Assembly: GCA_973895155.1 (NCBI GenBank)
Contig: OZ316897.1
Span: 23,287,455 to 23,351,454, forward strand
DNA from: Marsupella aquatica
Lineage: Eukaryota; Plantae; Marchantiophyta
Reading direction: 5' to 3'
Length of the DNA stretch: 64,000 bases
Shown: positions 1 to 48,123 of the stretch, piece after piece
How positions within the stretch are numbered: the first letter of the stretch is position 1
Layout of the letters: the number at the start of each line of letters is the position of its first letter
The notes under the pieces: model-generated
Seen by the model: only the letters and a program-made list of their open reading frames with translations
Databases searched by the model: none
What the model was told of the DNA's origin: nothing
Position numbers and translations under genes: made by a program

Positions 1-25
1 GATACAAGCCCGTACCGATGATGCT

Positions 26-3240: not shown

Positions 3241-3249
3241 TATAAAAGG
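3241..3249 (+). promoter_or_regulatory. Putative TATA box of family C element
   Basis: TATAAAAGG about 355 bp inside the 5' end of C, upstream of its ORF and followed by pyrimidine-rich leader-like sequence. Confidence 0.45.
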
Positions 3250-12595: not shown

Positions 12596-15500
12596 AGGAC
12601 GACATGGTGGCCCTAGAGACTAAACTCCAACAACTGCAACCTCAGGTAACGGCCACGGAGGATCAGGTTGCCAAAGCTAGGGCCCGGGCAGCCTTAGCAG
12701 AGCAGGCCGGGTTCAGAAAGGACGCCGAGATCGCACGTTTCCGGACCCAGATTGACGGTTTGAAGGGCCAAGCCGTCATTTGGCAGAAGGATCTGGAGGA
12801 GGCTGACTCTCGGTCCCAGTGAGACGCAGCCGAGATAGACGCCCTGAAGGCGAAAGTGGCACGGCTTCAAGGAGAAGCCACGAAGCAGGCCCAGTTGGTG
12901 GATAAGCTGACGAGTGACGCCCAACAACTGGAGGAGGCATGCCAGGAGGCCGCGGCAAAGCGAGAGAATGAATCTCTGTTGGACCAGGTCTAGCTACTCA
13001 AACAGGACGCCGATAGACTCAGGAGGCAGCGGGATAGTCGCTCCCACTTGGGCGGCTTTGGCAAGCATGCCAGGCATTAGCGGTAGAGTAGGATTAAAAT
13101 AGAGCTAGGAGTAGCTAAATCAGGCTATAGGGACAAGCGTCTGCCCTAGTTAAAGCGGCGCTGCCATATTGTCCGGCCTGCGTAGATTAGAATCTTCTAA
13201 TAAGACAAGCCATTTAATTTATGGCCTGACAGCCAGCTTAGTTAGGATTTTAGTTAGTGAATATTTGGGCACGGGGCCCCTTTGGTCCTCGGCCCTTAGT
13301 ATTTAGTGCACCCCTCGATAGAGCCAGGGGGTTTTTTAATCTCAGAGTTGGACATCCGCGGTATGTGCGGTGAGTCCCAACCTCTGTGAGTAGAAGAGTA
13401 CCAAGGGGAGGGGGTATGACTAAGCTCGCTAGGCAAGTGCGGAGCCGGACTCCGTTGTAGTGCACGCCCCTTGGCCTTGGACCTATCCATTCAAGAGCTG
13501 TCGAGTCAAATAAGTGTAAGTGTATGTCGACTCATGAAGTAAAATCTTTTCCCATTATTTCCTTCGTGTAAACCGAGATTGTATACCTGTGTGTGTGTAT
13601 GTATGAATCTCATGTATGGGTACCAATGCTTGGCCGAGCGCACTGCCCGAGCTGTGCACGGGTGCAGGTTGCGGATGAGTGGCTGCAAGCCCGGGGTGAG
13701 TGCCCGTATCAGCAAAACCAGATCAAAGGCGGACAACACAAAGGCTTAGAATCTTGTAAGAAGCCGGGGTCGATCCCGCTTTTGACTAAGGTACGTTCCG
13801 GTGGCGGAACACAAATCATACCTAGGAAGTGTATGTAAGTAACAGTAGTCGCACTTAGCGCTAGATTACGGGAGTTAGGTGCAGTCCGTGCGTCCCTCCT
13901 TGCCCAAACCCTCATACTAACGAAGGATGTGCCTGTCTAAGCCAAAGCTCGGGTTAAGGCCTAGGTGATGATGTGACAAGGAGCTTCAGGAGGAGTTAGC
14001 TAAGACGAAGGAGGCATGGACGGCTGAGGTCACAAAGTTGGAGGCCATCAACAACTCGCAGAAAGCAGCTTTAGATAAGAAGGAGTTTGAGATCGTGTAG
14101 ATCTTAAATGAGGAGCTAAAGACCGCCAAGGAAGAGGTCCTGCGGCTTAACAATGAAGTAGAAGACTTATCTCAGGAGTTGGAGGAGGCCAAGGAGAAGA
14201 TGATTGGGTTGCAGAGGCGTGCTGACAATCAAACTGAGAAGCTAAAGAAGTATGCCAAAGCGGGACAAGGGTCACCAACTGGAAGGCTTCCCGTCAATGG
14301 CATGGTAAATCTGGCAAAAACATTCATTGGGCCGGCAGGGAATAATGGAATGCCCCTTAAGGCCACGTACGCCAGAAGAGGTCAAAAGCATGGCCGCTCA
14401 CATTTGTTGTACTATAGCCGTGAAGGCAGCTGTGGTGGAGGTAAGTAATGCGGATCAACTTGGAGCTGCGGTGACAGGTTCTGACACTGGTACTGCTTCC
14501 ATGGATTACAAGAACGTACATGAAGCCGTGGGTGATCAAGACCGAGCACATTGGGGAGCAAGCTTGAATAGAAGAAGTGAAGGCCAATGCTATGCAAGTC
14601 GTTGCCAATGAGGATGCTGCCGATATCGATGCCGCAAAATTAGAACCCGAAGCCAAAGCAAAGGAAGCCGAGGGGATCAAGCCGAAGCCAAACATAGAGG
14701 AATGCGCAGAGTCGGAAGGTTTGGGATTGTCTTTGGTCATCTGACAATTAAGGTAGGCCAGTCATCAGTTGAAAGGAGGACGTGGCGGAAGGAGAAGGGC
14801 TTGGGCCAAAAGGGCGCGGCCGTTGTAGGATATTGACAGGGCAAGTGGTGCTTTGTTGGCTTATATTGCTTAGATAGTATTAAGAGTCCGGGTCCCTCAG
14901 CTTTCCGGCTTAGTCAGGTTGAATTTGTTTTAGATTAATAAACAAGAATATCACGATGGAAGGTTGTGATTGAGTGGTTAGGATTTTTGTGGTTCTTTGA
15001 GGTTACGCTGCAAGGATAAAAACCTGGGCAGCGTGGCTCGGGGGCTTTTTCTTAGTCAAGGCTTTAGTATAAATGTGTATTGTTGTGAGCACAGGAAGCT
15101 CTCGGCAAAATCTAGACCGCAGGGTATCAGTAAACCACAAGTTCCCATGGATTTTTGTGCAATTGTTTGAATTGAGTCACTTGGCCTTGTTGCCTAGTTT
15201 GCAGACTCTTGCCGACCAAGAAGTTGTGTGTTGTGATATTTGTTGCTTGATCGATTTAAGTCAGATAGAGTGAAACTGTTGAGCAAGGTACGATCGTATT
15301 GTCTTGATTGGAAACTGCCAAATCAAACTCTGAGAGAAAAGTGAGATATTGATAGTGTTAGTCAGTTAAAGTGTGGGTTGAGTCCGTCTGAAAAAGACCT
15401 TCAGCCGGCTTAAAAAAATTAAGCCGTAGAGGTACATTCCTGGGGCGGAATACAAATATACCCGATGAAGTCAAGGAGAAATTAGGTGTCTCTACAGTGC

Positions 15501-15670
15501 ATGATTCACAAGTCCAGTGAAAGAATCAGTCCAGCAAAGTGTGGATCAAAGGATAGCCGCGTTTCCAAGCCAGATAGCTGCCAAACTCCTAGAAGCCAGA
15601 CATAAATCAGTGGTTTATGATCGGTTGCTGCTAGTTCTTGGGGTTAGAGGTGTCGGGAAACGTGCCACAA

Positions 15671-16450
15671 CAACATTTTGAGGTGAGGGCAAGATGTGGA
15701 GGTGAGGGCAAGATTTCAAGTGAGGGCAAGATGTTGAGGTGAGGGCAAGATTTCTAGGTGAGGGCAAAATGTCGATCGAGGTGAGGGCAAGATTCTGAGT
15801 GAGTGCTGGATGTTGAGGTGAATGCAACATTTTGAGGTGAGGGCAAGATGTGGAGGTGAGGGCAAGATTCCAAGTGAGGGCTAGATGTCGAGGTGAATGC
15901 AACATTTTGAGGTGAGGGCAAGATGTGAAGGTGAGGGCAAGATGTCGAGTGAGGGCAAGATGTTGAGGCAAGCCGGGGCAAGATGTCGAGGAGAGACAAA
16001 GATATTGAGGAGAGGGTAAGATGTCGAGTACATGCAAAGATGTTGAGGGGAGGGAAAGATGTCAAGGAGAGGCAAAAATGTTTAGATGAGGGCAAGATGT
16101 CGAGGCAAGGGCCAGATGTTGAGGTGAGGGCAAGGTGTCAAGGAGAGACAAAGATGTTGAGGAGAGGGTAAGATGTCGAGGAGATGCAAAGATGTTGAGG
16201 CGAGGGCAAGATGTTGAGGAGAGACATAGATGTTGAGGCGAGGGCGAGATGTCGAGAGGAGGAAAAGATGTCAAGGAGAGACAAAAATATTTAGATGAGG
16301 GCAAGATGTCGAGGAGAGGCAAAGATGTTGAGGCGAGGGCAAGATGCATGTCAAGGAGAGGGTAAAATGTTGAGGAGATGCGAAGATGTTGAGGCAAGGG
16401 CAAGATGCCAAGGAGATGCAAAGATGTCGAGGCGAGGGCAAGATGTCGAG
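15671..16450. repeat. About 19-bp-unit satellite (gatgtYgaggYgagggcaa variants)
   Basis: Dozens of tandem degenerate copies, which generate several spurious repetitive ORFs. Further remnants at about 16790-16915. Confidence 0.9.
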
Positions 16451-17333
16451 GGGAGCAAAAGAGGTCAAGCGAGGTCAAAGCAAGGTCAAAGCAAGGCAAA
16501 AGACAGATAATTATGGAGAAAGCTAGACAATGTTTAGAAATAAATTAAAGCAAAAGCAAAAAGACAGGCACAAAAGGCAAAGGGGGAGAAATTCAACACA
16601 CCAAAAGGGAGTTAGAGGAGATAGTATCCAGAGCTATTAATGGAGTTTTGCAGATCAAGGGTCAACAAAAAACTTATTTTCCATCCAATGGTCGAGGTTA
16701 AATCCGGCTCAATCTTGCAATTGTAAGCAGATGATGCCCACAAATGGATGGGGTCCCTTATTGTGTGATAGCCCGATGCCCAGAAGAATTTGAGGCAAGG
16801 CAAGGATGTAGAGGCAAAGGAAAGATGTCAAGGCATGGCAACAATGTCGAAGCGAGTGAACATGTCAAGACAAAAGCAAGTCAAAGATGTTGAGGCACAA
16901 CAACAATGTTGAGGAGGGAAACACTTTTTGTTTTAATGTTCAATTCTTCAAGTTTTTGATAAATGAGTATTTTTATGCACAAAAAACTATAAGTTTTCCA
17001 TCATGGGAAAGCTCTTGGCTGGCAAAAATATTATCCCCTCTATCATTTTCTTGCTTTGTAGTTTTTTCATGTCCTCAACTTTATTTTACTTCTTTTTTTC
17101 CCTTTATCTTAGTAAACCAACCCTCTCCCCTCACACTCCTTGTGGCTTTTCCCCTTTATGTGCGTTATTCATGATACCTTGGGAGAGTTATACATAATCA
17201 TACTCCATGCAAAATACAAAAAGTTTGACATGCCCCAAAAGTTTCTGGTTGGGATGTGTGTAATTTAATAAAAGAGAATACATTTTAGATGATGTCACAT
17301 AAGAATGTACATAAGAATCATCTCATGTAGTCT

Positions 17334-19062: not shown

Positions 19063-21927
19063 TCACCAGTAATCACCACAAGAACACATTCCATCTTTAA
19101 AATGGTGGAACCGATTTGCATCCCTTGCAATAATCTCGCGTCCGGTCACCTTAGAGATATACTTGGTTGCTGAGTGGCAGTCTGAACACACCCGAAGGTT
19201 CTTACTCACACGAATAGGTTCTCCCCAAGGTAGGTGCATAAGTCCGTAAGCAATAGCCAACTTCTCACTATGAGAGCAAAGGGCTAGCTCTTTATCCTCT
19301 TCACTGATATCATGCAATACAAGCTGGGTATCCGGAATGTAGCCTTCCGCCTTCAGTTTTTCACTCAATTTATTCAGCTCAGTATAGATCGCCTCCGCTT
19401 CTGGGTGAGATGTATCCCCCACCACAAATTCATGGATCTTGTTATGAACTTCGATCCAGCTACGTCCTGGCTCCTTCCGAACACCTCTCTCTTGCATCAT
19501 AGTGCGCACAGATGACACCTTCTCCCACTTCCCAGCTGCAGCATAGATATTGGAGAGCAGCACATATGTAGAGGCCTTACCGGGTTCCAACTTGAAAAGC
19601 TCGTTAGCGGCCAGTTCACCCAGCTCCACGTTACCGTAAGTTCTACAAGCCCCAAGCAAGGCTGTCCAAGTTACATCATCTGGTTCGATCGGCATCTCAC
19701 TGATCAACTGCTTTGCTTCTTCCACGTGTCCCGCCCGCCCAAGAATATCCACCATAAGGGTATAGTGAAAAACAGTACGCTCGATACCATAATCTTGCGT
19801 CATAGCAGAAAAGATTCTACGGCCATCATCAACAAGGCCTCCATGAGAACAGGCTGACAACACAGCTGTGAATGACGTCTCGGTGGGCTTCACATGGTCT
19901 GCATTCATTTGTCTGAAAAGTTCCAGGGCTTCCTGCCCATATCCGTGTTGTGCAAGTCCACCGATCATTATGTTCCAAGTGACTACATCGCGTTTCTCCA
20001 TTCTGTTAAAAACAAGTCGGGCGTCAGCTATACTGCCACTCTCTGCATACATGTGAACGAGTGCACTACCCACACGCAAATCCGACTCCAGTCCGGCTTT
20101 GCTAGCGTGGCCATGAACCTCCTTCACCCACTCCAAAGCCCCCGCACTTGCAGATGCATTCAGAATACTCGCATAAGTGAATGCATCTGGTTCAAAGCCC
20201 TCCCGTCTCATTTGGAGAAACAACCGATATGCTTCATGCCCAGATCTATGTTGTGCAAGCCCTCCTATCATTACAGTCCATGTGATTACATCGCGTTTCT
20301 CCATTCTATCAAAGACCAGTCGGGCATCATCTATACTGCCAATCTTCGCATACATGTGAACGAGTGTATTGCCCACACGCAAATCCGACTCCAGTCCGGC
20401 TTTGCTAGCGTGGCCATGAACCTCCTTCACCCACTCCAAAGCCCCCGCACTTGCAGATGCATTCAGGATGGTCATATAAGTGATTTCATTTGGTTCGAAG
20501 CCTTGGCGTCTCATTTCAAGAAACATTCGATATGCTTCATGCCCACATCCATGTTGTGCAAGTCCCCCGATCATTACGTTCCATGTGACTACATTGTGTT
20601 TCTTCATTCTCTCAAAAACAAGTCGGGCGTCATCTATACTGCCACTCTTTGCATACATGTGGACCAGTGCAGTGCCCACACGCAAGTCTGACTCCAGTCC
20701 AACTTTGCTAGCATGCCCATGAACCTCCCTCACCCACTCCAAAGACCCCGCACTTGCAGACGCATTCAGGATGCTCACATAAGTGACTGCGTTTGGTTCG
20801 AAGCCTTCCCGTCGCATCTGGAGAAACAATCGATAAGCTTCATGCCCACCTCCGTGTTGTGCAAGTCCACCGATCATTACAGTCCATGTGACTACATCGC
20901 GTTTCTCCATTCTGTCAAAAACCAGTCGGGCGTCACCTATCCTGCCACTCTCTGCATACATGTGAACCAGCGCAGAGCCCACACGCAAATCTGACTCCAG
21001 TCCCGCTTTCCTAGCGTGGCCATGAACGTCCTTCACCCATGCCAAACCCCCATCACATGCGGATGCATTCAGGATGCTCGTATAGGTGATTGCATTTGGT
21101 TCGAAGCCATCCCGTCTCATTTGGAGGAATAGTCGATATGCTTCCACACCATCACCACGTTCTGCACATGCTCCAATCATAACATTCCATGTAATGACAT
21201 TTCGATTGGTCAACTTTTCAAAAACTGTCCTTGCCTCGGTGATACAGCCACATTTTGCGTACATCAGTACGAGAGCAGTCCCTACACGCACGTCCGATTC
21301 AAAGCCGGCCTGTCGAATATGCTGATGAATTTCTTTTCCGCAATTGAGAGCTAATGGGCTTGAACATGCATTCAAGATGCTCAGATACGTGATCTCATTC
21401 GGCTTCACGCCTTCTTGGCGCATTAGATTGAAAATTTCGAGTGCAGATTCAGCATGATCACTCCTAGCGTATCCCGCAATCATGCTGGTCCAAGTAATAA
21501 CACATTTCTTCTGAATTTGATCAAAAACTCTACGTGCATCCGATAATCCTCCGCATTTTATATACACATTCAAAAGCGTGATTGCCACATATGGATTTTC
21601 GTGAATTCCACTCTCGATGATGCAATCATGAATTTGCTTGGCTACTGAAAGGTCTTTCTGTTGCAAGCACATTTGCAGAACTTTAACATATGTGTACGAG
21701 TCTATAGCAATGCCTCGCTGGAGACGATCTTTCAACATAGCAATTGTTTGACCCATGGTATTAGGATGCATATGCCTCCTGCCAATCCCTTTTGCAGTGA
21801 CTTGAGACCGATCTCTCGTGCAATAACTAACATTAGATGGAAATCTGCAGTGAGTAACCAAATTCGCCCTTGCCTTAACCCACGCTGGGGTTGACCATCC
21901 ATCCACCCAAAGTGCTAGTCTTGTCAA
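19063..21927 (-). CDS. PLS-class pentatricopeptide repeat protein with E and DYW deaminase domains (organellar C-to-U RNA editing factor)
   Basis: Uninterrupted ORF of up to 954 aa with repeated P-L-S motif triplets, PG box (KEPGRSWIEV), HSEKLA, CSDCH and terminal CSCGDYW. The true start is uncertain: the ORF track uses TTG and the first in-frame ATG is at 21771. Confidence 0.97.
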   Translation of the reverse strand: MTRLALWVDGWSTPAWVKARANLVTHCRFPSNVSYCTRDRSQVTAKGIGRRHMHPNTMGQTIAMLKDRLQRGIAIDSYTYVKVLQMCLQQKDLSVAKQIHDCIIESGIHENPYVAITLLNVYIKCGGLSDARRVFDQIQKKCVITWTSMIAGYARSDHAESALEIFNLMRQEGVKPNEITYLSILNACSSPLALNCGKEIHQHIRQAGFESDVRVGTALVLMYAKCGCITEARTVFEKLTNRNVITWNVMIGACAERGDGVEAYRLFLQMRRDGFEPNAITYTSILNASACDGGLAWVKDVHGHARKAGLESDLRVGSALVHMYAESGRIGDARLVFDRMEKRDVVTWTVMIGGLAQHGGGHEAYRLFLQMRREGFEPNAVTYVSILNASASAGSLEWVREVHGHASKVGLESDLRVGTALVHMYAKSGSIDDARLVFERMKKHNVVTWNVMIGGLAQHGCGHEAYRMFLEMRRQGFEPNEITYMTILNASASAGALEWVKEVHGHASKAGLESDLRVGNTLVHMYAKIGSIDDARLVFDRMEKRDVITWTVMIGGLAQHRSGHEAYRLFLQMRREGFEPDAFTYASILNASASAGALEWVKEVHGHASKAGLESDLRVGSALVHMYAESGSIADARLVFNRMEKRDVVTWNIMIGGLAQHGYGQEALELFRQMNADHVKPTETSFTAVLSACSHGGLVDDGRRIFSAMTQDYGIERTVFHYTLMVDILGRAGHVEEAKQLISEMPIEPDDVTWTALLGACRTYGNVELGELAANELFKLEPGKASTYVLLSNIYAAAGKWEKVSSVRTMMQERGVRKEPGRSWIEVHNKIHEFVVGDTSHPEAEAIYTELNKLSEKLKAEGYIPDTQLVLHDISEEDKELALCSHSEKLAIAYGLMHLPWGEPIRVSKNLRVCSDCHSATKYISKVTGREIIARDANRFHHFKDGMCSCGDYW

Positions 21928-22642: not shown

Positions 22643-25018
22643 GAATCTCAGGTTTCTGAAAAGAGAGTACTTAGAAATAAAGCCTAGCCATCATCTGTAG
22701 AATCCATCGTGATTAGACACAGATGACATGAACGTGAAAGCGCTTCCCTCCCTCTCCTACAATTCAGAAATAAAGGCTATCCATCATTCTTGAACTTGGC
22801 TCTTATACAATCCGTGAAGAGACACATACGACATGAATGTAACAGCTCTTCAGTCTCATTACCTGAAGGCCGTGTACAAGAACAATGGCGGATGCCAATA
22901 CCAATCAAACTGGAAGATGAAGGATAAACTCTGCAAATCAAACGTCTTTGTTGAGAATGTATTGAAGGTCGTTTGGTCACATCAAATCCAACAAAATGAC
23001 ATTCATACAAACTAATCATACCTGGCTGAGGACTGTTGCCTAAAGCGGTCCATATCCAAAAGTTCCATCGAGTCAGCTCCGTTCCCGTGCCGGGAATACG
23101 GAGCTCAATGGTACAGTTTTGAGAAATACGATCTTACCTGTTTGACAAAGGTTCAAATCAGTCTAAGTAGTGCAATCTTGCAGAGCCCTCAAATTTCAAG
23201 TCTCATCTTTCCTTCCCATGGACTAAGGAAAGAATATTCATTACGCGAAGGCTCTGTCGGGGAAACCTTGCCCGGGCAGAGGAATCTCAGCTCAGCGTAA
23301 CAGTTGGAGGAAGCCCTAGAAGCATAGCAGTAGCGGTATCTTCTCCAGGATCAATTCCTCCTGGTGGACTCTTTTAAGAATCATCCCAGCTTTGCCATCA
23401 AAACTTGAGAATCAAAACTACAAATTTTGAGAAGAAAAAGTATGAGAAGATCTTCCATCCAAACCCCAAAGCAACCCACCGTCATACCTGCACATTGCCC
23501 TCTGAAAAACTATGGCGCGAGTGCTCTTGTTTATCGCCCTCCAGGAAAGAACCCTTTCCAACTGAAGTGTCCTGCATACCAAACGAAGAATTGACGACAT
23601 TTCTTCAAAGAAGAACTTGTGAACAAGTGTTATGCAGACCGTGTAAGTAGCAAATTGGGCAGGCTCGACAATTCGTTCAGAACAACAAGTTGAAGCAAGT
23701 GGCAACAAAATTGGTCTAGATTGTGACGGGAAATCAGGAGACGGGCAGCAGGAGACGTCATGCAAGAAATGAGCAGGACTTGAACCAGGATGGACAGTAT
23801 CCCGGGCTGAAAAAGAGATTCTGTCCCGCTTCCTTGGGCGCTCAGAGGTGAGAAGTATAGTTGCCCAGCAATCTCAGGTCGAAACGCAGAAGAACATCCA
23901 GTATAGCTAGGGCTTTACTAGGAATTCTCTGCCCAAAGGACATACGAGAGGCCGTGTAAAAGTGGTAACGCGAACCTAACAGGGATCACTGGATTCGTCA
24001 GCATGTAGCTACGCACAGCTCGATACCAACTCCCCGAGAAGCAACTATAGCAATTCAGCAATCCGAAACCACTACTACAAGTAATTCTTAGCAGATTGTG
24101 AATTCTACAAGGATTGTTAGCTTTAAATTAACTGCTGAACCACCATTGGGGTATGGCTACCATGCGAGGAAACAGGACAAAATTTGCTAGTACCAGTAAA
24201 TTTTTTTCTGTTATGAGTAAAAAGACTCCTTGTAATGGGTCTTTTTTTCCTCATACCAAGGTTTGGACTTGTTGGCCGCTAGTAACAATATAGCATGGTC
24301 ATCTGGAACATGCTTTATTTTTTGTCTTGTAGTGATGTGAAAGTAAATAAAATATGATAGCATAGAAGTGCTGTTATATAAGTAAAGTGTCTGCCAAGAA
24401 AAGCACAGTGACCAAGAAAAGGTACAGTCAAACGATGCTAGGATGTGTGCACTTAACTCAGGGTGCCTTATGAATGACACTCCTTTCAATAAAAACCATA
24501 AACCTAAGAAAGAAAAAGATGAGGAGAACTTAAGAGGCTATGCGTTCATTTCTCTCACTTGTGGTGGTGGAGCCTTTGGTTTCATCTCTAAGAAAACACA
24601 TACTGTGAAAGGGGGCTGCCAAAATAAGTTCAAAACACTCTAGAATATCTAAAACTAAAGGGGTCTAAAAATTAATTAAAAATGTATAGAATACAAAGGC
24701 TTCCCCTTGATAAGGCAGATTGAAATGAAAATACATGACACAAAAATCTGAATAAGACAAAATCTGAAATGTGCATTCACCATATAGCAGCTTCAAAAAT
24801 TTCACAACTAGCCGCTAGTAACAACAAGCCTAGCGAAAACCCATTTGTGATTCGTTAGAACAAAGACACAAAATGTGCAAGACACGAGAGCGTACACGAG
24901 AGCGCTAGGAAAAGCAGTATTCAGTATTCTGCAGATGAACTGCAACTCCCCCAAAGGGCAAAGATAAAGGGCACGATCAACCCCGCAAACAGGAGACCCC
25001 GAGCCAGGGCACGGCAGA

Positions 25019-28000
25019 TGTGATGCCTAGACAGGAATCACTCGGCCGGTTAAGTGGGTAAAGCAGGAAGGCACCCTAGGAACACCTTAGTATAGGGACA
25101 AAACAAGGAAAATATAAACAATTAGGGGCAACCATGGAACCCGGGCAGAGGCCGGAGGTAAGGCTGAGGGTGAAAACCCGATTAGGGTTAGGGCGCGTTA
25201 AGCGTCGGCGGCTAGGAAGGATCAACGGGAAGAAGGACCGGCAGAGGAGAGGGGTAAGGAGCGCTTGCAGGAGATGGTGGCTCATTTGCGAGCACGAACT
25301 AGGCAGACGACTACGGGAGGCCAACTACTGTCAGCTGCTTAGGCAAGCACTCGGGGAGAGAGTAGATACCGACGATCGACCTAAGGAGGGTATGAGCAAC
25401 GTCAATCAAGCGGCACATTTCTGGGGATGCCTGTTCGAACGGGCAACTGAGTACATCAAGACTTACGAGGACGAGGAGTCAGAAAGGGCAGCTCGAGAAC
25501 GGCAGGAGCTCGCTCGATTGTGGGAGCTGCAGAAGACGGCTTTCTTAGGAGGCGAACTCATCAAGGACGAGTTCCTGTGGACGCCTACTTCCAATCAACT
25601 CGAAGATCTTCTGTTTTGCAAAGACAGCGTCGTCGGCATCCGAGAGGCCATCAAGAACTGCAACGACATACACTGGGAATTAAAGGGTAGCACGGAAAGG
25701 TGGACCCAGGCAACGGTGCTAGGAGAAACCTCCACGGCAGCAGAGATGAAGAGGAAGGGGGCCGTCAACGATGAAGCCACCCCGGCAAAAAGAATGAGGT
25801 CGGCGGCACCAAAGAGGCCAGCCGAGCAGCAGAGCAGGAGGCAGGGAGAAGCCAAAGAGGAGGAGGTCGATCCCATCAAGGCCATTCCAACCAGGGATGA
25901 CACCTGGAAGGGCTGGGCGGCAACCCTACCGGTGGAGGTGCAACTACATTTTGCACGGGAGGAGGATGCATGCTTTACGGCCATGCAGACCAAGAAGTAC
26001 CAAGGCTTCATGGCCGGATCCGGCTTGGAGGCCTTTGTAAGATTACCATGGCTGAAGCCGGAGGTACCGGAGTCAGACCTATTAGAATTCGTGGGGTCAT
26101 GGGAACCCGAGACCAATTGCACGAGGATATATGGGAAGGATTTCTATCTTACTCCCAAGGTAATTGCCGAAGTGTTTGGCTTGCCGATAGGCAATAAGAC
26201 CAAAGTTGATACCAGGAAGACCCTGCCTGACAAGGAGTTCCGGTCGTTCCCCGGACCATCAACGAAGAATGGCTTCTTCCGGAACACCTGCACCAACCCG
26301 CACATAGGAGAGATGATCGACTTCTTGTGGGTGACCATGCATTGTAACTTGCCGAGGGCAGAGATCGGCAAGGCACAGGTCTATCTGGCAGAAAGGCCAG
26401 ACCCAAGCCGGGACTACAACGGGTACCTCCTCAACCAATTGAAGAAGATCTTAAAGGAGGAGCAGCAGGTAATCGGCATGGGGAGCGTGTCGCGGCTTGG
26501 CTATCACATGCCGCTGTTGTGCCGGTATGCCAGAGGTCAGACTTTTGCCCCGGTACTTCCCCTGCAGGTAAGGGCACCCGAGGAAGCTCCAACGCCGAGG
26601 CCGTTGGCTGAGAAGCCTCAACCACCTGTTAGTCCTACGATCGAGCAGGTGTTTAGGCCCAGGAAGGAAGACTTGCCGATGCAGCAACCAGGCATGCAGA
26701 GTCTGCTGAAACTACTGGAGAAAGAAAAGAAATCGGCATCGGCAACAACAACGGCAACGGCAACAATGCAGGACACTACTACAGAGGTAGGCCTACACCG
26801 GCTCACAAGAGAAAACCCCTTTGCTAGAGACAAGGAGAGAATCAGGCCGGAATCCAAGCCAGGTGTTCGAATGTACGTGGGAACCTCAAGCTCCGAATCT
26901 GAGGCAGAATTGCCTGAAGCTCCTACCGACGAAGAGGAGAGGGAGAAGCCGGACGTCCAAGAGGTAGAGGAGGCAGTGGAGGACTGCAGCCATGATAATT
27001 CCGGCTATGGGTCGGACCATCACGTTCCAGGAGTAAGGACCTGTGGCCGGTTTGTCCCCACACTTCCAAGGGTAGTGCGAGGGGACCCCAACCAGCAGAG
27101 TAGCCCTGAGTCTCCCCCACCAGATGTTGCTCCCCCGAGCTTCGACGGCATAAAACAGACGGTGCAGGAATTTCAGGAGCGAATCAAGCAGGAGGAAGAG
27201 GCCGCCCTGGCTAAGGAAAAGGATTTACCAGGAGGAGATTGGCCGGAGAACATCAGGCGGCTAGCCGAAAAAGGAAGCAAACCTCTAGCCACGATTGAAG
27301 AGATCCGCAAGACGGCTTGGGAGCAGAGGCCACGATGGGCGATGCCGATCACTTCTACTTACTCCACCTACGCTAAGAATAGAGCCATGGAGTATGGTGA
27401 GATGTGTGGGGAACTTGCGCTCGGCATCTTTGGAGAGGAGTTGGAGGTAGGACCCTTTTTCCATAGGGAGCAGTTGGAGAAGCACCAATTAGAAGAAGCG
27501 GTGGCTTTAGAGAGAAGCAAGAAGGACGAGGTCATTCGACGGCTTAGGAGGATGGAAGCCGAGATTGAAGATCTAAGGGCGGCCAAGAAAGCCCAAGATG
27601 AACTGCGGATTAAACGACATGAACTGAACATCATGCAGGGGCAGTTGGACACCGCGCAGGCTGATAATCAGAATATCAAGGATAAACTAACTCAGACGCA
27701 GGGAGAGTTGGCCGACACGATCAAAGAGAGGGAGAAGTGGAAGCAAGAGCTGAAGAATACAGAGGAGGCCCACATAACAGCCAACAGCCGGGCCATGGCG
27801 GAGACCCAAAGAAGGGAATGGGCGTTGAAAGTGGAGCTCGAGAAAATCCGCGGAGCCCTTGAGCAGAAGGAGGTCGAGTTAGGGAAATCCTATCAAGGGA
27901 TTATGGCGCTGCAGCAGGAGCTTGCGTCCCTAACGGCCAGCTTCAAGGCCGACCTAAGGGAGAAGGACGAGATGCTCGAACAGACTTACGCCAAGATGAA

Positions 28001-29678
28001 CCAGATGGAGTCTGTCATCATTGCAGAGCTCGACAAGGAGCTAAGAGCAACCCAGGAGGAGAGGGCTACCTTGAAGAAGGAATTGGAGGAAGCCCACAGG
28101 GAGCAGGAGGAGGCCAAAAACGAGCTGGAGGGGGCACGTAAGGACCTGGATGAAACCCAAGAGGAGTTGGAGGAAATCACGAGGAAGATGGAGAACCTAC
28201 AGCGGCGGGCCGACAACCAAACAGAGCGGCTGAAGAAACAAGCCGCAGTATTTAAATGCTTAGCTGCAGCAGGTCCATCTCCCGTTGGGACAAACCAGTT
28301 ACCAGGGGTGGTAATTGCCGAAGGACAAGCTGCGCCAACTGCACCAGTGCCGGAAGTAAGTGGGAAGGGGAAGGGACCAGCTGCCGAGCCACCAACGAAG
28401 AAGAAGCGGAAACCTTCAGGGTCAAGGAGTAATACGACTTCACAGGCCGTGGTGATCAAGGAGGTAGACCCAGCACCGACCCCAGACAGGGTCACGGCTA
28501 AGGATCCAACTACCCTAGGGGAAGGGGAGGCCGAAGCCGAGGGAGTGGCTGAAGCCGAAGCCGTGGGAGTGGCTGAGGCCGAAGCCATGGGTATTGCCGA
28601 GGCCGGTGTTGAGGCTGAAGCCGAAGGTGGACCCAGTCAGGCCGATGGAGAGTTGACTCAGTCAAGGGCAGGTAATCTGTCAGAGAATGAACCTACGGCA
28701 GTGGCTGAGGAGGAAGCGTTGGGGGCGTCCATTAAGGATCCACCACCGGTGTCGTGACGGTGCAAGGGCGCCGTTCCTTTTAGGGAGGGCGGACGTGGAG
28801 GGAGGAGGCGTGAGTGGGCAGGGCGGGCGCGGATCTCCACGTTTAGGATTAGGATCAGAACCAGGAGCGGCCCTGACACTTAGCTTAGTGGGATTGCGGT
28901 CCCACTGGTAGGAGCAACACTTGTGCTCCTGCCTTGCTGTACATAGGTAGATTCAGGCAAGTAGATTACTGTTAAGTAGATTAGGCTTACGATGCAAAGA
29001 ATGGCGGATCCACTACCAGGATAAGTACCTGGGCAGCGGGGAGCTCAGGGCCTCTTCTTTAGCAAGTTTTTAGTTTGCACCAGCCGGGCTGGGATCAAGT
29101 AGTACGAGAAGCTCTCGGTTAGTCATACAGTGACCCTTGTGTATATTCATGTTTCCTCATGCCTAAGAGCTGAATAGAGTTGGCCTCACGGCTTAGTTCG
29201 CAGAACTTGTGTATGAGATGTACTGTTTGTATGGCAAGTGCATGGTATGACTCAGTCAGAATGAGTCATTTTGCTATTTGTGTGTTGCATTAACTTGTGT
29301 GAAGAGTGCCCACATCAACAGAAGGAAGGAAAGTAAGCAGGGGAGTGAGAGTTGGATGTGTCGAGCTGAGAGAGGTCTTAGCGGCTTAACCAAGCCTATT
29401 GGGGATCATTTCGGCGGCGGAATCCAAACATACCTAACAAGACGGAGGGGAAGACAGGGGAAGACAGGGGAAGGCCTATATTAGGCCGGCTACGTATCTC
29501 ATGACCCGATGAAGGATCTGTCCAGTATATGTGTGTAAAATGTTAATAGTAGTAGTAGAAGGTTAGCAGCGTCCCATGCCGCTAAGCCGCGGAAACGGCC
29601 TCGCCAAGCACGAAACCTGCGGGAATCGGCTTGAGCTGGGGGGTTTCTTGGGTTTAGGGAGCCATGGGACGCACCACA
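25019..29678 (+). mobile_element. Family A copy 2 (4660 bp), TG...CA, TSD GCAGA
   Basis: GCAGA at 25014-25018 and 29679-29683. The empty site ggcagagaactc is present in the sister copia LTR at about 34585. Confidence 0.95.
25134..28757 (+). CDS. Intact family A protein: basic N-terminus, plant-mobile-domain/transposon-protein-like region, long coiled coil, acidic tail
   Basis: 1207-aa uninterrupted ORF. EFVGSWEPETNCTRIYGKDFYLTPKVIAEVFGLPIG resembles the PMD consensus W.PET...G....T..V...GLP. The C-terminal half is heptad-rich in E/K/L. No RT, integrase or DDE motifs seen. Confidence 0.8.
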   Translation: MEPGQRPEVRLRVKTRLGLGRVKRRRLGRINGKKDRQRRGVRSACRRWWLICEHELGRRLREANYCQLLRQALGERVDTDDRPKEGMSNVNQAAHFWGCLFERATEYIKTYEDEESERAARERQELARLWELQKTAFLGGELIKDEFLWTPTSNQLEDLLFCKDSVVGIREAIKNCNDIHWELKGSTERWTQATVLGETSTAAEMKRKGAVNDEATPAKRMRSAAPKRPAEQQSRRQGEAKEEEVDPIKAIPTRDDTWKGWAATLPVEVQLHFAREEDACFTAMQTKKYQGFMAGSGLEAFVRLPWLKPEVPESDLLEFVGSWEPETNCTRIYGKDFYLTPKVIAEVFGLPIGNKTKVDTRKTLPDKEFRSFPGPSTKNGFFRNTCTNPHIGEMIDFLWVTMHCNLPRAEIGKAQVYLAERPDPSRDYNGYLLNQLKKILKEEQQVIGMGSVSRLGYHMPLLCRYARGQTFAPVLPLQVRAPEEAPTPRPLAEKPQPPVSPTIEQVFRPRKEDLPMQQPGMQSLLKLLEKEKKSASATTTATATMQDTTTEVGLHRLTRENPFARDKERIRPESKPGVRMYVGTSSSESEAELPEAPTDEEEREKPDVQEVEEAVEDCSHDNSGYGSDHHVPGVRTCGRFVPTLPRVVRGDPNQQSSPESPPPDVAPPSFDGIKQTVQEFQERIKQEEEAALAKEKDLPGGDWPENIRRLAEKGSKPLATIEEIRKTAWEQRPRWAMPITSTYSTYAKNRAMEYGEMCGELALGIFGEELEVGPFFHREQLEKHQLEEAVALERSKKDEVIRRLRRMEAEIEDLRAAKKAQDELRIKRHELNIMQGQLDTAQADNQNIKDKLTQTQGELADTIKEREKWKQELKNTEEAHITANSRAMAETQRREWALKVELEKIRGALEQKEVELGKSYQGIMALQQELASLTASFKADLREKDEMLEQTYAKMNQMESVIIAELDKELRATQEERATLKKELEEAHREQEEAKNELEGARKDLDETQEELEEITRKMENLQRRADNQTERLKKQAAVFKCLAAAGPSPVGTNQLPGVVIAEGQAAPTAPVPEVSGKGKGPAAEPPTKKKRKPSGSRSNTTSQAVVIKEVDPAPTPDRVTAKDPTTLGEGEAEAEGVAEAEAVGVAEAEAMGIAEAGVEAEAEGGPSQADGELTQSRAGNLSENEPTAVAEEEALGASIKDPPPVS

Positions 29679-30075
29679 GCAGAGAACTCAAACCAAAAAC
29701 AAAAGCACGTCGCCCTTGCTTCACATTGTGGCAAGTGGCAAGTGGCAAGTGATGGAGTGCGAACTGCAAAAGTGAAAACGTAACAAGCTAAAGAACTGCA
29801 GTAAAAGTAAAAAACACAATAGCCTACATCTAGACGGAGAACGACGAGAGGAACCCCGTGAGGAACCAGACATCAGATCCGGTCGAGCACAGAAGAGAAC
29901 AGGGCATTCCCTGTCACACTTCCCCCCGATCGACCACATTTGAAGAAGACAACAGCGGCAACGTTTGTAGACTCAGAAGTTGCACAAACCGACGAAAAGC
30001 TTCACCAGATAGAGGTTTTGTAAGACCATCAGCTGGCATGATTGTTGTCGACAAGTATCGAAGTGTCACAATACC

Positions 30076-33000
30076 CTATTGAACTTGTTCGTGAACAAAA
30101 TGCCATTGAATGTCAATGTGCTTGGTTTTCGCATGATGCTCAGGATTAATGGTCAGAGCTAACGCCGGTTTATTGTCGCCATAGATGACCACTGTGTGCA
30201 CATCAGGTGAAACAACTTGAAGTTCATGAAGTAAGCGCCGTAGCCACACCGCCTCCTTACAAGCAATTGAGTAGGCAACGTATTCTGCCTCGGTAGAGCT
30301 GGTGGCAATTAATGGCTGTTTGCGAGATTTCCAACTGATAGCCCCGCCTGCAAGTTTAAAAAGATAGCCAGAAGTAGACTTGCAATCGGTGGAGTTACTA
30401 GCATAAGATGCATCAGAGAAACCTTGAAAATTGAGAGAATGTACTTCAAGTCCCAGAGATGGTGTCAACTGATAGCGAATGCCAAGATTGAGAGTATGAT
30501 TGATATAGGCCATGATGTTGCGAATGCAGCTGTGATGCTCTGGTGCAGGATTATGTGCAAAATGTCCTAATCGTGCACAACGCTCAGCAATGTCAGGCCA
30601 TGTCCATACAGCCAGATACATTAACAATCCCACCATGGATTGGTAGTGATGACACTGATCAGGAGTCGCCTGCATAGGACTAGGCCGAAGATCATCAAGA
30701 CCCGTGGAAGGAGCTGTCATGGGTGCAGCATTTTCCATGTGAAACGTCGAACAATCTTTTGAGCATAGACATTTTGAGCAATGTAGAGAACACCAGCAGC
30801 ACGATTGCGATGAATAGTAAGACCCAAATATTTCGTAAGTTCTCCCATATCCCAAACCTCGTATTTAGACACCAGCATGGCCTTCATTCGAGCAATACCT
30901 TGCTTAGTAGGAGAGAGGCAAATGATATCATCAACCCAGAGAACTATTATATCCCCATTCTGATGTCGTAAAACGCATGGATCAGATGGAAGAGGAAAGA
31001 AACCATTTCGAGCAAGAAACTCGGTAATCTCAATGTACCAAAGGCGTGGTGATTGACGAAGACCGTAGAGGGCCTTCAGAAGGAGCCAAATTAAAAGAGC
31101 ACCATGAATGTCATAGGTCTCATATCCAGGCGGTGGACAAATATAGATGGGAGGTTGGCCTGCCATAAGTGCGTACAAAAAATCAGTAACAACATCAAAG
31201 CAATGAGCCTCAAGGTTGCCAGAGACCACGAGTGCCATGAGTAATCGAAAGGTCTCCGGACAAACTACGGAGGCAAAAGTATCGTGAAAATCTTCCCCCG
31301 GGTGTTGTTTATCCCCTCGAGCAACAAAACGGGCCTTATGAATCCCTGACCGTTTACGAGAATACATCCATTTAGACAGTAGCAAACGTGCACCAGGAGG
31401 AAGAGTAGTGAGCTTAGCCACGTTTAACTTCTGTAATTGATTGAGCTCAGTGAGCTCGGCAACACGCCATTTATCCACATCAGGTCGAGAGAGTGTCTCC
31501 CGATGTGTTTTAGGGACATCATCATCGGCTGAAGAAAAAAGCGCCGCTGAATAAGAGTATACCAGAGATGATGGAAGATGTGCCAGCATTGTATAGGCAT
31601 TCATTGTGGCATTGTACCGAGAAGGAGGAATCCCCTTATTTGTCCGAGCAGAGCGACGGAGCTCCGAGGGCGTGGTAGCAAGAGCTGCTTCAAAATCATG
31701 TTGAAATTCATCACCAGATGGATTCCTGATTGGCGGTGCCATTGTGACAAGCGGAAGTGGAATCGGAATCACAAGATCAGAAGCAGAGTGATCAGTAGAC
31801 GAGATGACAGCATCCAAAACAGGTGTTATTGTAGACTTGGATGGCATCGGAGGTCCATTAGAGAGTGGAGAACTAGTACCACTAGCCGCAGGCGCCAAAA
31901 TTGAAGCAACCGGAGTCGGAAGAGACAATGGTGACTGAAGAAGAGGCAGAGGTGACTCAGAAGATACTAGAACAACATCCAATGTTGAATCCGTAGCCGG
32001 AACATCGGAAGAAGAGTCCTCATAGAGTGTTGGACAGTTCTCGGGTGAAATAGCCAGGAGTCGAGGCGTTTCATCAAAAGTAACATAGGCAGAAATGGTG
32101 ATCAAATTTTGCCGTGGCATCCAAATCCGATAATTCAGACCATCATCATACCCAACCAAATAGCCTTGTTGAGCACGTGGCTCGAACTTCTCCCCTCTGG
32201 GCCATGTTTCAGGAGGAATGTGAACATATGCTACTGCTCCAAAAACTTTCAGATGACCAAAATTGGATATCTCAGGGAGTGCCATGACCTTTCGTAAACA
32301 TGATATAGGTGAGACAAGGTCCGAATGAGCCGTCGTAGGAAGATGATTGGTAAGATAGACCGCAGTCCTAATTGACTCGGGCCAAAGTAGAGTTGGTAAT
32401 TTTGAATCCAAGAGCATAGCTCGGGCCTTCTCCGTGATGATACCATTTGATCGCTCGGCGATGCCATTCTGAGTGTGATGGTAAGGGGCCGAGTGTACCA
32501 TGCGACTACCCTTCTCCGCAAGAAAATTCTGAAACAAAATGCTGCCAAATTCGGTGCCATTATCACAAAAAACTTCTGAAATAGTCGATGAGTACTGATT
32601 GGCAATGGCCGCAAAGAATTGTTGTATGATAGCAACCGATTCACCCTTGTTATGGAGACAGGATGTCCAGCGATAGCGGGTATGATCATCAGTGATTAGA
32701 AGAAAATATTTCATACTACCAATGCCTAGAGAAGACATCGGTCCACACAGATCAAGATGTATTCGCTGAAAAGGTTTGGAAGCACGAGTGTGTTGTTCTT
32801 GACAGATTATACGAGCAGACTTGGCCAGAGCACAGGCATCACATGATGTAAACAGAGCAGAATCAGTAAGTCGGATCCCCTCGCTCTGAATGAACTGTTT
32901 CACACCGTCAATGTGTAGGTGCGCCAAGCGCCTATGAAGAGTATTGATATTGACAGATTGAAGAGAGATAGTACTGTTATGATGGTCATTAGCAAGAGCC

Positions 33001-34360
33001 AATTGAACATGGAAAACCTTAAGGCCATCAACCTTTTGAATACGAGCAAACTCTTGACCACTAGGAAGAAGTACAAATTTGGAGTGCCAGCCTTGCCAAT
33101 ACACACCCCGTTGTTCAAGAAGATGTTCAGAGATTGTGTTGAGAACACTTGTAGGCATATAGCGTACATGATTTAGACGAAGAGGCCGAAATGTTTGTCA
33201 GTGCATTGGACATGCAGATCAATGTTACCGTATCCCGGAGATATGATTGACCCCGCCCCGGTATTAATGGAGATAGGATCAACAATGTATTGCTGTAACA
33301 ACTTTTCATTATTGCAAAAATGGTGATTTGCCCCTGAGTCAGCAATCCATGTATCCTGATCAATGGTGAATGCGGCTGCTGAATGAGCTTGATGCGCGAA
33401 CTGAACAAAATTAAACACGTCCAGCAACAATGATTCGATTGGAGTGGGAATTGAGGTAGATGCCTGAACATTGTTGACACCTCTTAGCCGCTCCTGTATT
33501 CTCTGCATTGTGATAGTATTTGGTTGCCATCCCGGACGACGGAGATGAACGTATTTGTAGTAGCACGTCTCTTCCCGATGTCGGGGCAGACGACAGTATG
33601 GACAGATCTCCTTGCGCGGTGCAGCATTAGAAGGAGCAATGGAAGTAACAATGGAAGATGCCATAGCCACTTGTAGTGTAGGTGGCTCACGCTCAGTCTT
33701 ACGGCGCCATTCATCCTTCGCTTCAAAGATGAGAAGATCTAGGGAAGGTGCATTATTAGGATCACGGCGCATTAGCTCCCGCTTTGAGAACGCCCATTGA
33801 TCAAAGTGTCCATCCATAATATGAATGAATTGCATAATTTGAACTGTAGGATCGATTGTAATCCCAGCAGCAGTGCAACGATCAATGGCTTCACGATAAG
33901 AAATGCCAAACAACTCCATCTCTTCCCCACGATAATGTAGCTTCACAAAATGAACCCAATTATCATGTTTCTGTAGCAAACCTTGAGGTTGATACGTCTT
34001 CTTTAGATGATCCCAACACTCTTTAGCCGTAGTGATTGTGGCTAAAGAAGTCTGGATATGTGGTTTGCACGTAGAAAGAATGAGCATGCGCGCATGAGCA
34101 CCCTGTGCAGTGTAGGTCTCCAGACGCGCCTGAAAGTGGTAATCTCGTTCATCAACATCTTGTATCGGTGGAATAGCCATTCCGTCCACAAATTTCCAAA
34201 CACTACCAGCGGCTAAACTTGCAGAAACGAGCATCTGCCAAGATTCATAGTTGGAGTTTCCATCGAGTTTTGGAACGAAATGACTAGTATCGCGATAAGA
34301 GAAAGACATGATTTCAGATAGTTGAACAAGAGAGAAGAATTCTAGCAGGAAAGAATGCAA
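30076..34360 (-). pseudogene. Copia gag-pol polyprotein, disrupted
   Basis: Gag (KLDGNSNYESW), protease WIADSGANHH, LHRRLAH..CDAC, integrase (IHLDLCGP, DNGTEF, QNGIAER), RT (HKARFVARG, LLKALYGLRQSPR, WVDD), RNase H (FSDASYA, STEAEY, KHIDIQWHFV). Split by a stop near 33173 and a frameshift near 30750. Confidence 0.95.
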
Positions 34361-35149
34361 GTCTTACACAAATGGAATGGTTCCAAGAAGAATCAAAAAA
34401 TTCTAGGCCCATAACCTGTGATTCGTTAGAACAAAGACACAAAATGTGCAAGACATGAGAGCGTACACGAGAGCGCTAGGAAAAGCAGTATTCAGTATTC
34501 CGTAGATGAACTGCAACTCCCCCAAAGGGCAAAGATAAAGGGCACGATCAACCCCGCAAATAGGAGAGCCCAAGCCAGGGCGCGGCAGAGAACTCAAACC
34601 AAAAACAAAAGCACGTCGCCCCGCACGTCGCCCTTGCTTCACATTGTGGCAAGTGGCAAGTGATGGAGTGCGAATTGCAAAAGTGAAAATGTAACAAGCT
34701 AAAGAACTGCAGTAAAAGTAAAAAACACAATAGCCTACATCTAGACGGAGAATGACGAGAGGAACCCCGTGAGGAACCAGACATCAGATCCGGTCGAGCA
34801 CAGAAGAGAACAGGGCATTCCCTGTCACACCATCCAACAGTCTGTTCATATTTGAACTTAACCTTTCGAGTTAAGTATGTCAATGTAATTTTTTTTAAAA
34901 CAAGTTGAACTCCGAAATAGACATAAAGATCATCACTAAAGCACTTGGAAAGGAGTTTAACTTTCAATTTCAATCATGGGTATGGACATTGGGAGTCATT
35001 GGTATCTCAGATAAACATACAAAATTGGCACCATAACCAACTTACAAGGTTGGCAATAATTTCAGGGAGACTTGCCAACTTTTCAAAAAAGCCAAGTCTA
35101 TAAAGACATGATATCCAACCTTATCGGGGTAACATGACTGTGCCACTGA

Positions 35150-38043: not shown

Positions 38044-39346
38044 GATCATCTCTCCTATGTGAGGGTTGGTGCAGGTGTTCCGGAAGAAGCCATTCTTCAT
38101 TGATGGTCCGGGGAACGACCGGAACTCTTTGTCAGGCAAGGTCTTCCTGGTATCAACCTTGGTCTTATTGCCTATCGGCAAGCCAAACACTTCGGCAATC
38201 ACCTTGGGAGTAAGATAGAAATCCTTCCCATATATCCTCGTGCAATTGGTCTCGGGTTCCCATGACCCTACGAATTCTAATAGGTCTGAATCCGGTACCT
38301 CCGGCTTCAGCCATGGTAATCTTACAAAGGCCTCTAAGCCGGATCCGGCCATGAAGCCTTGGTACTTCTTGGTCTGCATGGCCGTAAAGCATGCATCCTC
38401 CTCCCGTGCAAAATGTAGTTGCACCTCCACCGGTAGGGTTGCCGCCCAGCCTTTCCAGGTGTCATCCCTGGTTGGAATGGCATTGATGGGATCGACCTCC
38501 TCCTCTTCGGCTTCTCCCTGCCTCCTGCTCTGCTGCTCGGCTGGCTTCCTTGGTGCCGCCGACCTCGTTCTTTTTGCCGGGGTGGCTTCATCGTTGACGG
38601 CATCCTTCCTCTTCATCTCTGCTGCCGTGGAGGTTTCTCCTAGTACCGTTGCCGGGGTCCACCTTTCCGTGCTACCCTTCAATTCCCAGTGTATGTCGTT
38701 GCAATTCTTGATGGCCTCTCGAATGCCGATGATTCTGTCTTCACAAAATAGAAGATCGTCGAGCTGATTGGAAGTAGGAGTCCACAAGAACTCGGCGTTG
38801 ATGAGTTCGCCTCCTAAGAAAGCCGTCTTCTGCAGCTCCCACAATCGAGCGAGCTCCTGCCGTTCTCGAGCTGCCCTTTCTGATTCTTCGTCCTCGTAAG
38901 TCTTGATGTACTCAGTTGCCCGTTTGAACAGGCATCCCCAGAAATGTGCCGCTTGATTGACGTTGCTCATACCCTCCTTAGGTCGATCATCGGTATCTAC
39001 TCTCTCCCGGAGTGCTTGCCTAAGCAGCTGACAGTAGTTGGCCTCCCGTAGTCGTCTGCCTAGTTCGTGCTCGCAAATGAGCCACCATCTCCTGCAAGCG
39101 CTCCTTACCCCTCTCCTCTTCCGGTCCTTTCTCCCGTTGATCCTTCCTAGCCGCCGACGCTTAACGCGCCCTAACCCTAATCGAGTTTTCACCCCTAGTG
39201 TCCTTACCTCCGGCCTCGGCCCGGGTTCCATAGTCGCCCCTAATTGTTTATATTTTCCTTGTTTTGTCCCTATACTAAGGTGTTTCTAGGGTGCACTCCT
39301 GCTTTACCCACTTAACTGGCCGAGTGATTCCTGGCTAGGCATCACA
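38044..39346 (-). mobile_element. Family A copy 3, truncated (5' 1.3 kb only)
   Basis: Begins tgtgatgcctagccagg on the minus strand at 39346. The ORF matches copy 1 until ...PHIGEMI, then breaks into unrelated sequence. Confidence 0.9.
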
Positions 39347-47987: not shown

Positions 47988-48123
47988 TGTGACGCCGCCG
48001 GTACGGCGGGTAATGAGTAATTCGGTCTAACCGCGCTTAGCACGCGCGTTAGGGGTATCTTAGGCCGTTATTATTAGCATAATGACAGTACTTAGGTAGC
48101 CATTATGAGTAGGAAATCATTAG
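47988..48123 (+). mobile_element. Family C 5' terminal fragment
   Basis: tgtgacgccgccggtacggcgg...attagcataatgacagtacttagg matches the first ~135 bp of C. Confidence 0.85.

Follow-up and report, generated by a model that had tools for sequence, protein, structure and literature searches.

The 64,000-nucleotide (nt) stretch of the Marsupella aquatica genome analysed here (contig OZ316897.1, positions 23,287,455 to 23,351,454 of the forward strand; hereafter the window, numbered from its first base) is plant-like and rich in nested transposons. It contains four copies of a repeat, Family A, which were located by repeat finding, BLAST and direct reading of the window, and whose complete units are about 4.6 kb long and are largely occupied by one open reading frame (ORF) of 1207 codons. 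Three copies are complete: c1 (7924–12595, plus strand; 4672 nt), c2 (25019–29678, plus strand; 4660 nt) and c3 (52355–56981, minus strand; 4627 nt). The fourth, c4 (38044–39346, minus strand), comprises only the first 1.3 kb of the unit. The copies fall into two subfamilies, c1/c4 and c2/c3, with c2 and c3 sharing 98% identity, and c2 is the sole copy in which the full 1207-codon ORF is unbroken. Summed together, c1 to c4 account for 15.3 kb, or 24% of the window.

All three complete copies start with TGTGATGC and end with GCACCACA (7 of 8 positions complementary), and the 5′ terminus is also retained in the truncated c4. Each complete copy is flanked by its own exact 5-bp target site duplication (TSD): AGGAC for c1 (7919–7923 and 12596–12600), GCAGA for c2 (25014–25018 on the left and 29679–29683 on the right) and, in the orientation of the element, TCTCT for c3 (52350–52354 and 56982–56986). 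The chance of three such exact matches is very small (P ~1e-9). Copies c1, c2 and c3 have two of the attributes of a solo long terminal repeat (LTR), namely a short inverted repeat of the TG...CA type at the ends and a TSD of 4–6 bp around a single unit. A first-pass annotation, made from the sequence alone, had described three complete copies with their own exact 5-bp TSDs and one fragment, and the coordinates, ends and TSDs were all recovered. Its reading of TG...CA ends with a 5-bp TSD as the footprint of an integrase agrees with the three TSDs and with two empty insertion sites.

The first empty site is that of c2, which lies within the first LTR (24846–29918) of a Copia element; the other LTR of this element (34417–34829) has a single, uninterrupted GCAGA at the equivalent position (34585–34589). 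The second is that of c1, which is inserted in an older element carrying a distant relative of the same gene (lineage C, described below); a paralogue of its flanks (45064–46085, plus strand; 68–80% identity) aligns as one block across the c1 insertion point. With their TG...CA ends, exact 5-bp TSDs and two empty paralogous sites, the Family A units are genuine integrase-type insertions. The boundaries, TSDs and empty sites also refute the view that the copies are dispersed segmental duplicates of a host gene, with the TSDs and the conservation of the ORF being coincidental. That relatives of the ORF product in Calypogeia fissa are annotated as ordinary proteins speaks for such duplicates, but three copies share the same boundaries to the last base while each has a different exact TSD, two of the insertions lie inside a Copia LTR and a related older element, and individual copies contain stop codons, which together leave this explanation with next to no probability.

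The Family A unit has no terminal repeats of its own. A self-BLAST of the unit shows only 14-nt chance words, no direct word of 9 nt or longer is common to its first and last 500 nt, and these two segments share five 8-mers where 3.7 are expected by chance, all of which bears out the earlier statement that internal direct terminal repeats are absent. The units are therefore not small LTR elements of the terminal-repeat retrotransposon in miniature (TRIM), large retrotransposon derivative (LARD) or TR-GAG types, for which two terminal direct repeats are required. Pairing of the copies as the two LTRs of a single element was likewise rejected; c1 and c2 are co-oriented, as are c3 and c4, but the members of each pair belong to different subfamilies, and every complete copy has its own TSD.

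A 5-bp TSD and short imperfect inverted ends (TGTGATGC and TGTGGTGC on the two strands) would also suit a non-autonomous cut-and-paste DNA transposon of a superfamily generating 5-bp TSDs (Transib-like or Ginger-like) that has captured a gene. However, the inverted ends extend for only 8 nt (7 of 8 matching), as LTR ends typically do and transposons with terminal inverted repeats do not, and their TGT...ACA type is shared by the Copia LTRs and by a further repeat in the window, unit B. No transposase is encoded in the unit or in the window, where a single weak, sub-threshold match to TNP1/EN/SPM falls in an unrelated ORF, and to our knowledge neither Transib nor Ginger has been reported from land plants. 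A DNA transposon origin is thus very unlikely.

The c2 ORF (25134–28757, plus strand) spans unit positions 116–3739 of 4660 and encodes a protein of 1207 aa (P0001). It fills 77.8% of the unit, matching the earlier estimate of about 78%, and lies wholly inside it, the frame being closed upstream by an in-frame stop at 25077–25079. The chance of 1207 stop-free codons arising from the base composition is ~2e-23, the strand being T-poor. Between the subfamilies, the ratio of non-synonymous to synonymous divergence (dN/dS, Nei-Gojobori) is 0.32 in frame, compared with 1.03 and 1.16 in shifted control frames, and the proportions of synonymous and non-synonymous changes differ (Fisher P 1e-21). The differences between c1 and c2 at codon positions 1, 2 and 3 number 77, 80 and 159 respectively (chi-square P 1e-9). 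All seven indels that distinguish these copies within the ORF are multiples of three (3, 6, 12, 6, 3, 21 and 6; P 5e-4), compared with one of the six in the non-coding parts (1, 2, 1, 1, 9 and 1).

The first-pass annotation had inferred selection on the protein from many synonymous changes and in-frame indels between the subfamilies; the 159 third-position differences, the seven in-frame indels, a dN/dS well below the ~1.0–1.2 of the control frames and the existence of homologues elsewhere uphold that inference, and the ratio is not the value near 1 that the annotation had named, in combination with a lack of expression, as telling against its interpretation. Constraint differs along the protein, with dN/dS values of 0.12 for a conserved core (residues 236–480), 0.25 for a coiled coil (with a high dS of 0.32) and 0.31 for residues 87–235, and of about 1 for the first 86 codons, from only 8 changes. 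As dS ranges from 0.03 to 0.56 along the ORF, the subfamilies are mosaics, the coiled-coil region included. There are two in-frame stops in c1 and one in c3, and the combination of constraint with stops in single copies fits selection on replicating lineages and neutral decay after insertion. By its dN/dS, its in-frame indels and its homologues in other genomes, the 1207-codon ORF is a real gene under selection.

P0001 has a basic N-terminus (26 lysine and arginine residues among the first 100), followed by the conserved core domain (residues ~235–480; 25836–26573, plus strand), an acidic, proline-rich disordered stretch, a long coiled coil (residues ~791–1060; 27504–28313, plus strand) with no prolines in residues 801–1000, and an acidic alanine-rich tail. 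The core is the sole part with clear homologues elsewhere, and the coiled coil has one database match (P0014). There is no membrane segment (the top 19-residue hydropathy is 0.86), which rules out an env-like protein. P0001 matches no Pfam family, and hence no reverse transcriptase, integrase or transposase, and the core domain alone matches none even at E≤10. The protein is not an enzyme of transposition; it is predicted to be soluble, to oligomerise and to serve the element as an accessory factor, probably in the nucleus.

A phmmer search against 1.84 billion representatives identified 18 proteins at E≤1e-3, the best with 41% identity; 13 of these match the core, four match residues ~90–245 just before the core, and one matches the coiled coil. 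The only named relatives are proteins of the leafy liverwort Calypogeia fissa. Longer relatives share the P0001 layout of a core followed by a disordered stretch and a coiled coil, and Pfam reveals nothing in them beyond generic coiled-coil matches. No whole-protein homologues were found at near lengths, and a profile search with the aligned relatives recovered only two Calypogeia proteins. A search for longer homologues, such as pol fusions, found none, although by its own measure this search provides weak evidence. In metagenome contigs, an exact 22-nt pattern from the Family A 3′ end had no matches, and a scan for the core domain gave 36 pattern matches, none of which was confirmed.

None of the 15 aligned members of the family (P0001 and 14 relatives) matches PF03078 (ATHILA), PF20167 (Transposase_32) or PF10536 (plant mobile domain, PMD). 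Protein-language-model neighbours of P0001, with scores of 0.87–0.90, serve as leads only and point to PF20167 and PF03078; the clusters with these two families are the nearest, at 0.87–0.88, which is below the trust line. The likeness would be a lead and not membership, as no sequence test supports it. Assignment as a plant mobile domain, suggested by a motif resemblance, was set aside as it has no Pfam support. The AlphaFold2 model of the core is mediocre (pLDDT 63.5, pTM 0.55), and Foldseek searches with it returned nothing at E≤0.001 from either PDB or BFVD. A wide VIA-align search with the core gave a best Z of 3.4, well below the noise level (VANC21, with a Z of 2.9, is not significant), and comparison of the core profile with PDB sequences gave only a chance histone row (E 0.5).

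A candidate promoter element, TATAAA, is located near the 5′ end of the unit (25113–25118, plus strand; unit positions 95–100), 15 nt before the first ATG, and is identical in all four Family A copies. The true start of the ORF may be Met87 (at 25392), as the homologue P0008 begins at about this point and the first 86 codons show no constraint. The non-coding 3′ part of the unit (28758–29678, plus strand) has indels that are not multiples of three and contains several TATA-like motifs of ambiguous meaning; one of these, near the 3′ end, was considered as an LTR promoter and rejected because it is lost in c1. Identity between the subfamilies is 93.9% in the 5′ non-coding part, 95.9% in the 3′ non-coding part and 91.2% in the ORF. 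The non-coding ends presumably act in cis, for which a higher conservation than that of the ORF would be expected.

If the unit is an LTR, its layout may be deduced from the TATAAA in all four copies, the start of P0008 near Met87, the unconstrained first 86 codons and a TATA box in lineage C. These suggest a U3 of ~125 nt, with transcription starting just after the first ATG, translation from Met87 and the gene situated in R-U5, in which case even a solo LTR would be a complete cassette of promoter, ORF and 3′ untranslated region (UTR). Alternatively, the gene could lie in a long U3 and be expressed from full-length or spliced RNA, as in the sag gene of mouse mammary tumour virus (MMTV). A sequence resembling a splice donor, GGAG|GTAAGG, is found at unit position ~139.

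Searches by tblastn with P0001 and its relatives reveal two more lineages of the gene, both older, and seven loci of this family are present in the window. Lineage A′ (971–2806, plus strand) has 44–67% aa identity to residues 300–905 and is frameshifted. It is preceded immediately by a gag fragment (2–970, plus strand) that is cut by the window edge, has three CX2CX4HX4C zinc knuckles and gives a weak SCAN-like match of the capsid C-terminal type (E 0.057); the gag fragment and the first part of lineage A′ constitute one open frame (2–1183, plus strand).

Lineage C (3302–7303, plus strand) is a third, more distant relative whose closest match is Calypogeia P0012 (34% identity). A canonical TATAAAAG is located in this lineage at 3241–3248, ~100 nt before an ATG at 3347. 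The N-terminal part ends at 4080, where unit B (4081–6541, plus strand) intervenes, and the frame resumes at 6547; the core domain (6629–7303) is followed by the c1 interruption, with coiled-coil similarity at 13984–14307. Unit B is 2461 nt long, has TGTCAC...GTCACA ends and is flanked by GTGGC as its exact TSD; it probably represents a solo LTR from a different family. Removal of unit B and one TSD copy (2466 nt) leaves the lineage C frame open for 348 codons, into the core. Copy c1 later entered the lineage C element as well. The ends of the lineage C element were sought by TSD and inverted ends, giving four weak candidates, none of which is convincing. The gene family rides on at least three repeat lineages in the window (A, A′ and C), where units that resemble solo LTRs, having TG...CA ends and 5-bp TSDs, occur commonly. 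A second copy of unit B (63286–64000; 95% identity) is cut by the window end and overlaps the end of an ORF at 61630–63390. A pair of 136-nt inverted repeats (46129–46264 and 47988–48123), 90% complementary and 1.7 kb apart, lies inside the lineage C paralogue and resembles a small DNA transposon; a third copy of the arm is located just after lineage A′ (2885–3033).

Family A most probably represents the solo LTRs of a giant LTR retrotransposon with an accessory gene inside its LTR, the full-length form of which is unseen. Such an element would be organized as LTR, primer-binding site (PBS), gag, pol, polypurine tract (PPT) and LTR, with the whole accessory gene in each 4.6-kb LTR. Reverse transcription would rebuild both LTRs in each cycle, such that each active lineage would copy the gene and subject it to selection, and this would explain a dN/dS of ~0.3 between subfamilies despite the decay of single copies. 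Integrase would join the TG...CA ends, creating the 5-bp duplication, and unequal recombination between the very long LTRs would remove the internal part to leave a solo LTR with the original duplication. By the established mechanism, canonical reverse transcription of the LTR type is not open to a unit that has no terminal repeats, PBS or PPT, and for this reason a solo LTR is the economical reading. LTR identity is also favoured because ends of the same kind are found on the Copia LTRs and on unit B nearby in the window, and because a gag fragment directly precedes one diverged relative of the gene and has the same orientation. Solo LTRs form more readily the longer the LTR is, and a high ratio of solo to intact elements is expected when LTRs are very long. 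Lengths above 3 kb are described as uncommon for LTRs, although some exceed 5 kb (PMC3485330), extra ORFs are described as common in plant Ty3/gypsy lineages with long LTRs (PMC6317226, PMC11728184), and liverworts are among the reported hosts of Athila and Tat, two lineages known for their extra ORFs and long LTRs (PMC12885004, PMC13468544).

Several observations weigh against this solo-LTR interpretation. There is no full-length element in the window, and no PBS, PPT or pol adjoins any of the four Family A copies; purines do not predominate in their upstream flanks, and every complete copy is bounded by a TSD of its own. A search that covered ORFs of at least 110 aa together with 229 ORFs of 55–109 aa outside known elements gave no match in the window to reverse transcriptase, RNase H, integrase or protease other than in the single Copia element, and hence none to a Ty3/gypsy pol. 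The sequence and fold searches described above found no tie of P0001 to known retrotransposon proteins, no U3/R/U5 boundary is shown within the unit, and an R-U5 of 4.5 kb would need an unusually long strong-stop DNA. The junction between gag and lineage A′ falls within the conserved core, and a Pfam scan of database relatives showed a zinc knuckle in none of them, so this arrangement may be a local rearrangement. It is read as a deletion joining gag to the gene, with a natural gag fusion as the alternative, and the position of the gene downstream of gag in the same orientation is weak evidence for linkage, worth at most a factor of about two. In metagenome contigs, an exact 22-nt pattern from the Family A 3′ end had no matches, and a scan for the core domain gave 36 pattern matches, none of which was confirmed.

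Some of these observations would be accommodated if Family A is a complete LTR-less cassette of promoter, ORF and 3′ UTR that has only the integrase ends, has at no time belonged to a gag-pol element and is inserted in trans by the integrase of an autonomous LTR retrotransposon or a related DDE integrase. All three complete copies stand alone with their own TSDs (the fourth being truncated), Ty3/gypsy pol is missing from 64 kb despite seven loci of the gene family, there are candidate promoters at the 5′ end in both lineage A and lineage C, and purifying selection acts on the gene, in keeping with a unit that depends on it. However, no route is known by which such a cassette would produce linear double-stranded DNA that includes both of its ends; strand transfer would have no terminal repeat of at least 9 nt to use, neither a PBS nor a PPT adjoins the ends, and the cassette encodes no polymerase or integrase. 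The high solo-to-intact ratios expected for very long LTRs and the relative of the gene that sits behind gag also count against it, and such a cassette is unlikely. The same low standing is given to the proposal that Family A is a new kind of mobile gene that hijacks a retrotransposon integrase, in which the coiled-coil protein would serve parasitism and at least three cassette lineages would have diversified in liverworts.

Among known systems, Family A is similar to the solo LTRs of plant elements with very long LTRs (Ogre, Tat, Retrosat2 and LARD) in its TG...CA ends and 5-bp TSD, in the occurrence of stand-alone copies each with its own TSD, and in its nesting within other elements. The extra ORF of Ogre lies in the internal region and not in the LTR. 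The size of the Family A unit falls inside the range given for LTRs, 80 bp to more than 5 kb (PMC3485330). The same source describes LTRs as non-coding, whereas 78% of the Family A unit is one ORF maintained by selection, and it places the extra ORF of Retrosat2 in the internal region and not in the LTR, whereas that of Family A is within the unit (PMC3485330).

The additional or extra ORFs (aORFs or eORFs) of plant retrotransposons, including Athila ORF-1, Transposase_32 and PMD, are described as non-enzymatic, disordered and lineage-conserved, with basic stretches resembling nuclear localization signals, as is the case for P0001 (PMC11728184, PMC6317226). For the Athila, Retand and Ogre lineages, the extra-ORF domains listed are Athila ORF-1, Transposase_28 and PMD (PMC6317226), and a sunflower Athila element is noted to carry PF20167, which is related to PF03078, in its 3′ additional ORF (PMC11728184). 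The described aORFs sit between an LTR and gag-pol, whereas the Family A gene is inside the repeat unit, and neither P0001 nor any of its 14 relatives has a Pfam match to the plant aORF families even at E≤10. A phrase search of an aORF review (PMC7264820) found no use of 'in the LTR', 'within the LTR', 'inside the LTR' or 'overlap'.

The sag gene of MMTV lies wholly inside the LTR, and so is present in both proviral LTRs, an arrangement that Family A would have only if its unit is an LTR. Whereas sag is in U3, the Family A gene may sit in R-U5, and whereas sag encodes a type II membrane protein, P0001 is encoded in a plant genome and has neither a membrane segment nor any Pfam match. The sag product is about one quarter of the length of that of the Family A ORF. 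Family A resembles sag only in gene placement, and no sequence-based test places it with sag or with the plant aORFs. Phrase searches of open-access text found no description of a plant LTR with a gene inside, returning only MMTV (for example PMC2118998) and unrelated uses of the phrases, nor did they meet a described LTR family with an annotated LTR ORF, a match that the first-pass annotation had said would remove the novelty.

The element that hosts c2 is an intact Ty1/copia element (24846–34829, minus strand) with gag, integrase and RVT_2 at 30717–34309. Its two LTRs, likewise on the minus strand, have TGTGAT...GTCACA ends and are 94.2% identical with the Family A insertion removed; because c2 and c3 are 98% identical, the Copia element is older than the c2 insertion. 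GGGGGGAAG adjoins the 3′ LTR of the Copia element, and the flanks of the element (CCATT and CCATC) match at four of five positions. An intronless gene of the PPR-E-E+-DYW editing-factor type (19063–21771, minus strand; 902 aa) contains five 303-nt internal repeats (19928–21439), presumably blocks of PPR motifs. At 49769–52123, 42663–43232 and 48496–49689 (minus strand), two ORFs have N6_N4 DNA methylase matches (E 9e-6 and 4e-9) and two adjacent ORFs have NIF-like phosphatase matches; laterally acquired methyltransferases making 4-methylcytosine in liverworts are mentioned in a preprint (10.64898/2026.05.21.726589), and the ORFs here may be host genes of that kind or transposon cargo. A 331-codon open frame without a Pfam family (56977–57972, minus strand) closes in a TGA made by the first bases of c3, so c3 appears to have inserted into coding sequence; beyond c3, the methylase ORF is not a continuation of this frame. 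Tandem arrays are present at 15650–16500, 58643–59390 and 60545–61432, with periods of 19 nt, 34 nt and ~66/168 nt, and the arrays at 58.6–59.4 kb and 60.4–61.4 kb are related and in inverted orientation.

The unusual feature of Family A would be that an accessory gene lies wholly inside the repeat, for which the nearest precedents appear to be MMTV sag and the plant additional ORFs; the size of the gene, the clear selection upon it and the presence of three lineages side by side are notable. In Calypogeia fissa, the relatives are catalogued as host proteins without a name, which is of consequence for genome annotation. Programs that search for LTRs do not expect coding sequence inside them, and one study limited LTRs to 6 kb when running LTR-FINDER (PMC6317226). 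The protein family, with a defined core of ~230 residues and no Pfam or structural match, is a clean target for functional work in liverwort models. If the Family A units are LTRs, the terminal repeat of a retrotransposon has come to hold an accessory gene of 3.6 kb, such that each element carries the gene twice and every solo LTR left after recombination stays a potential gene, with such units making up a quarter of the 64-kb window. The functions of the accessory proteins of plant retrotransposons are described as a long-standing question (PMC11728184, PMC7264820), and Family A bears on how these proteins evolve and are expressed.

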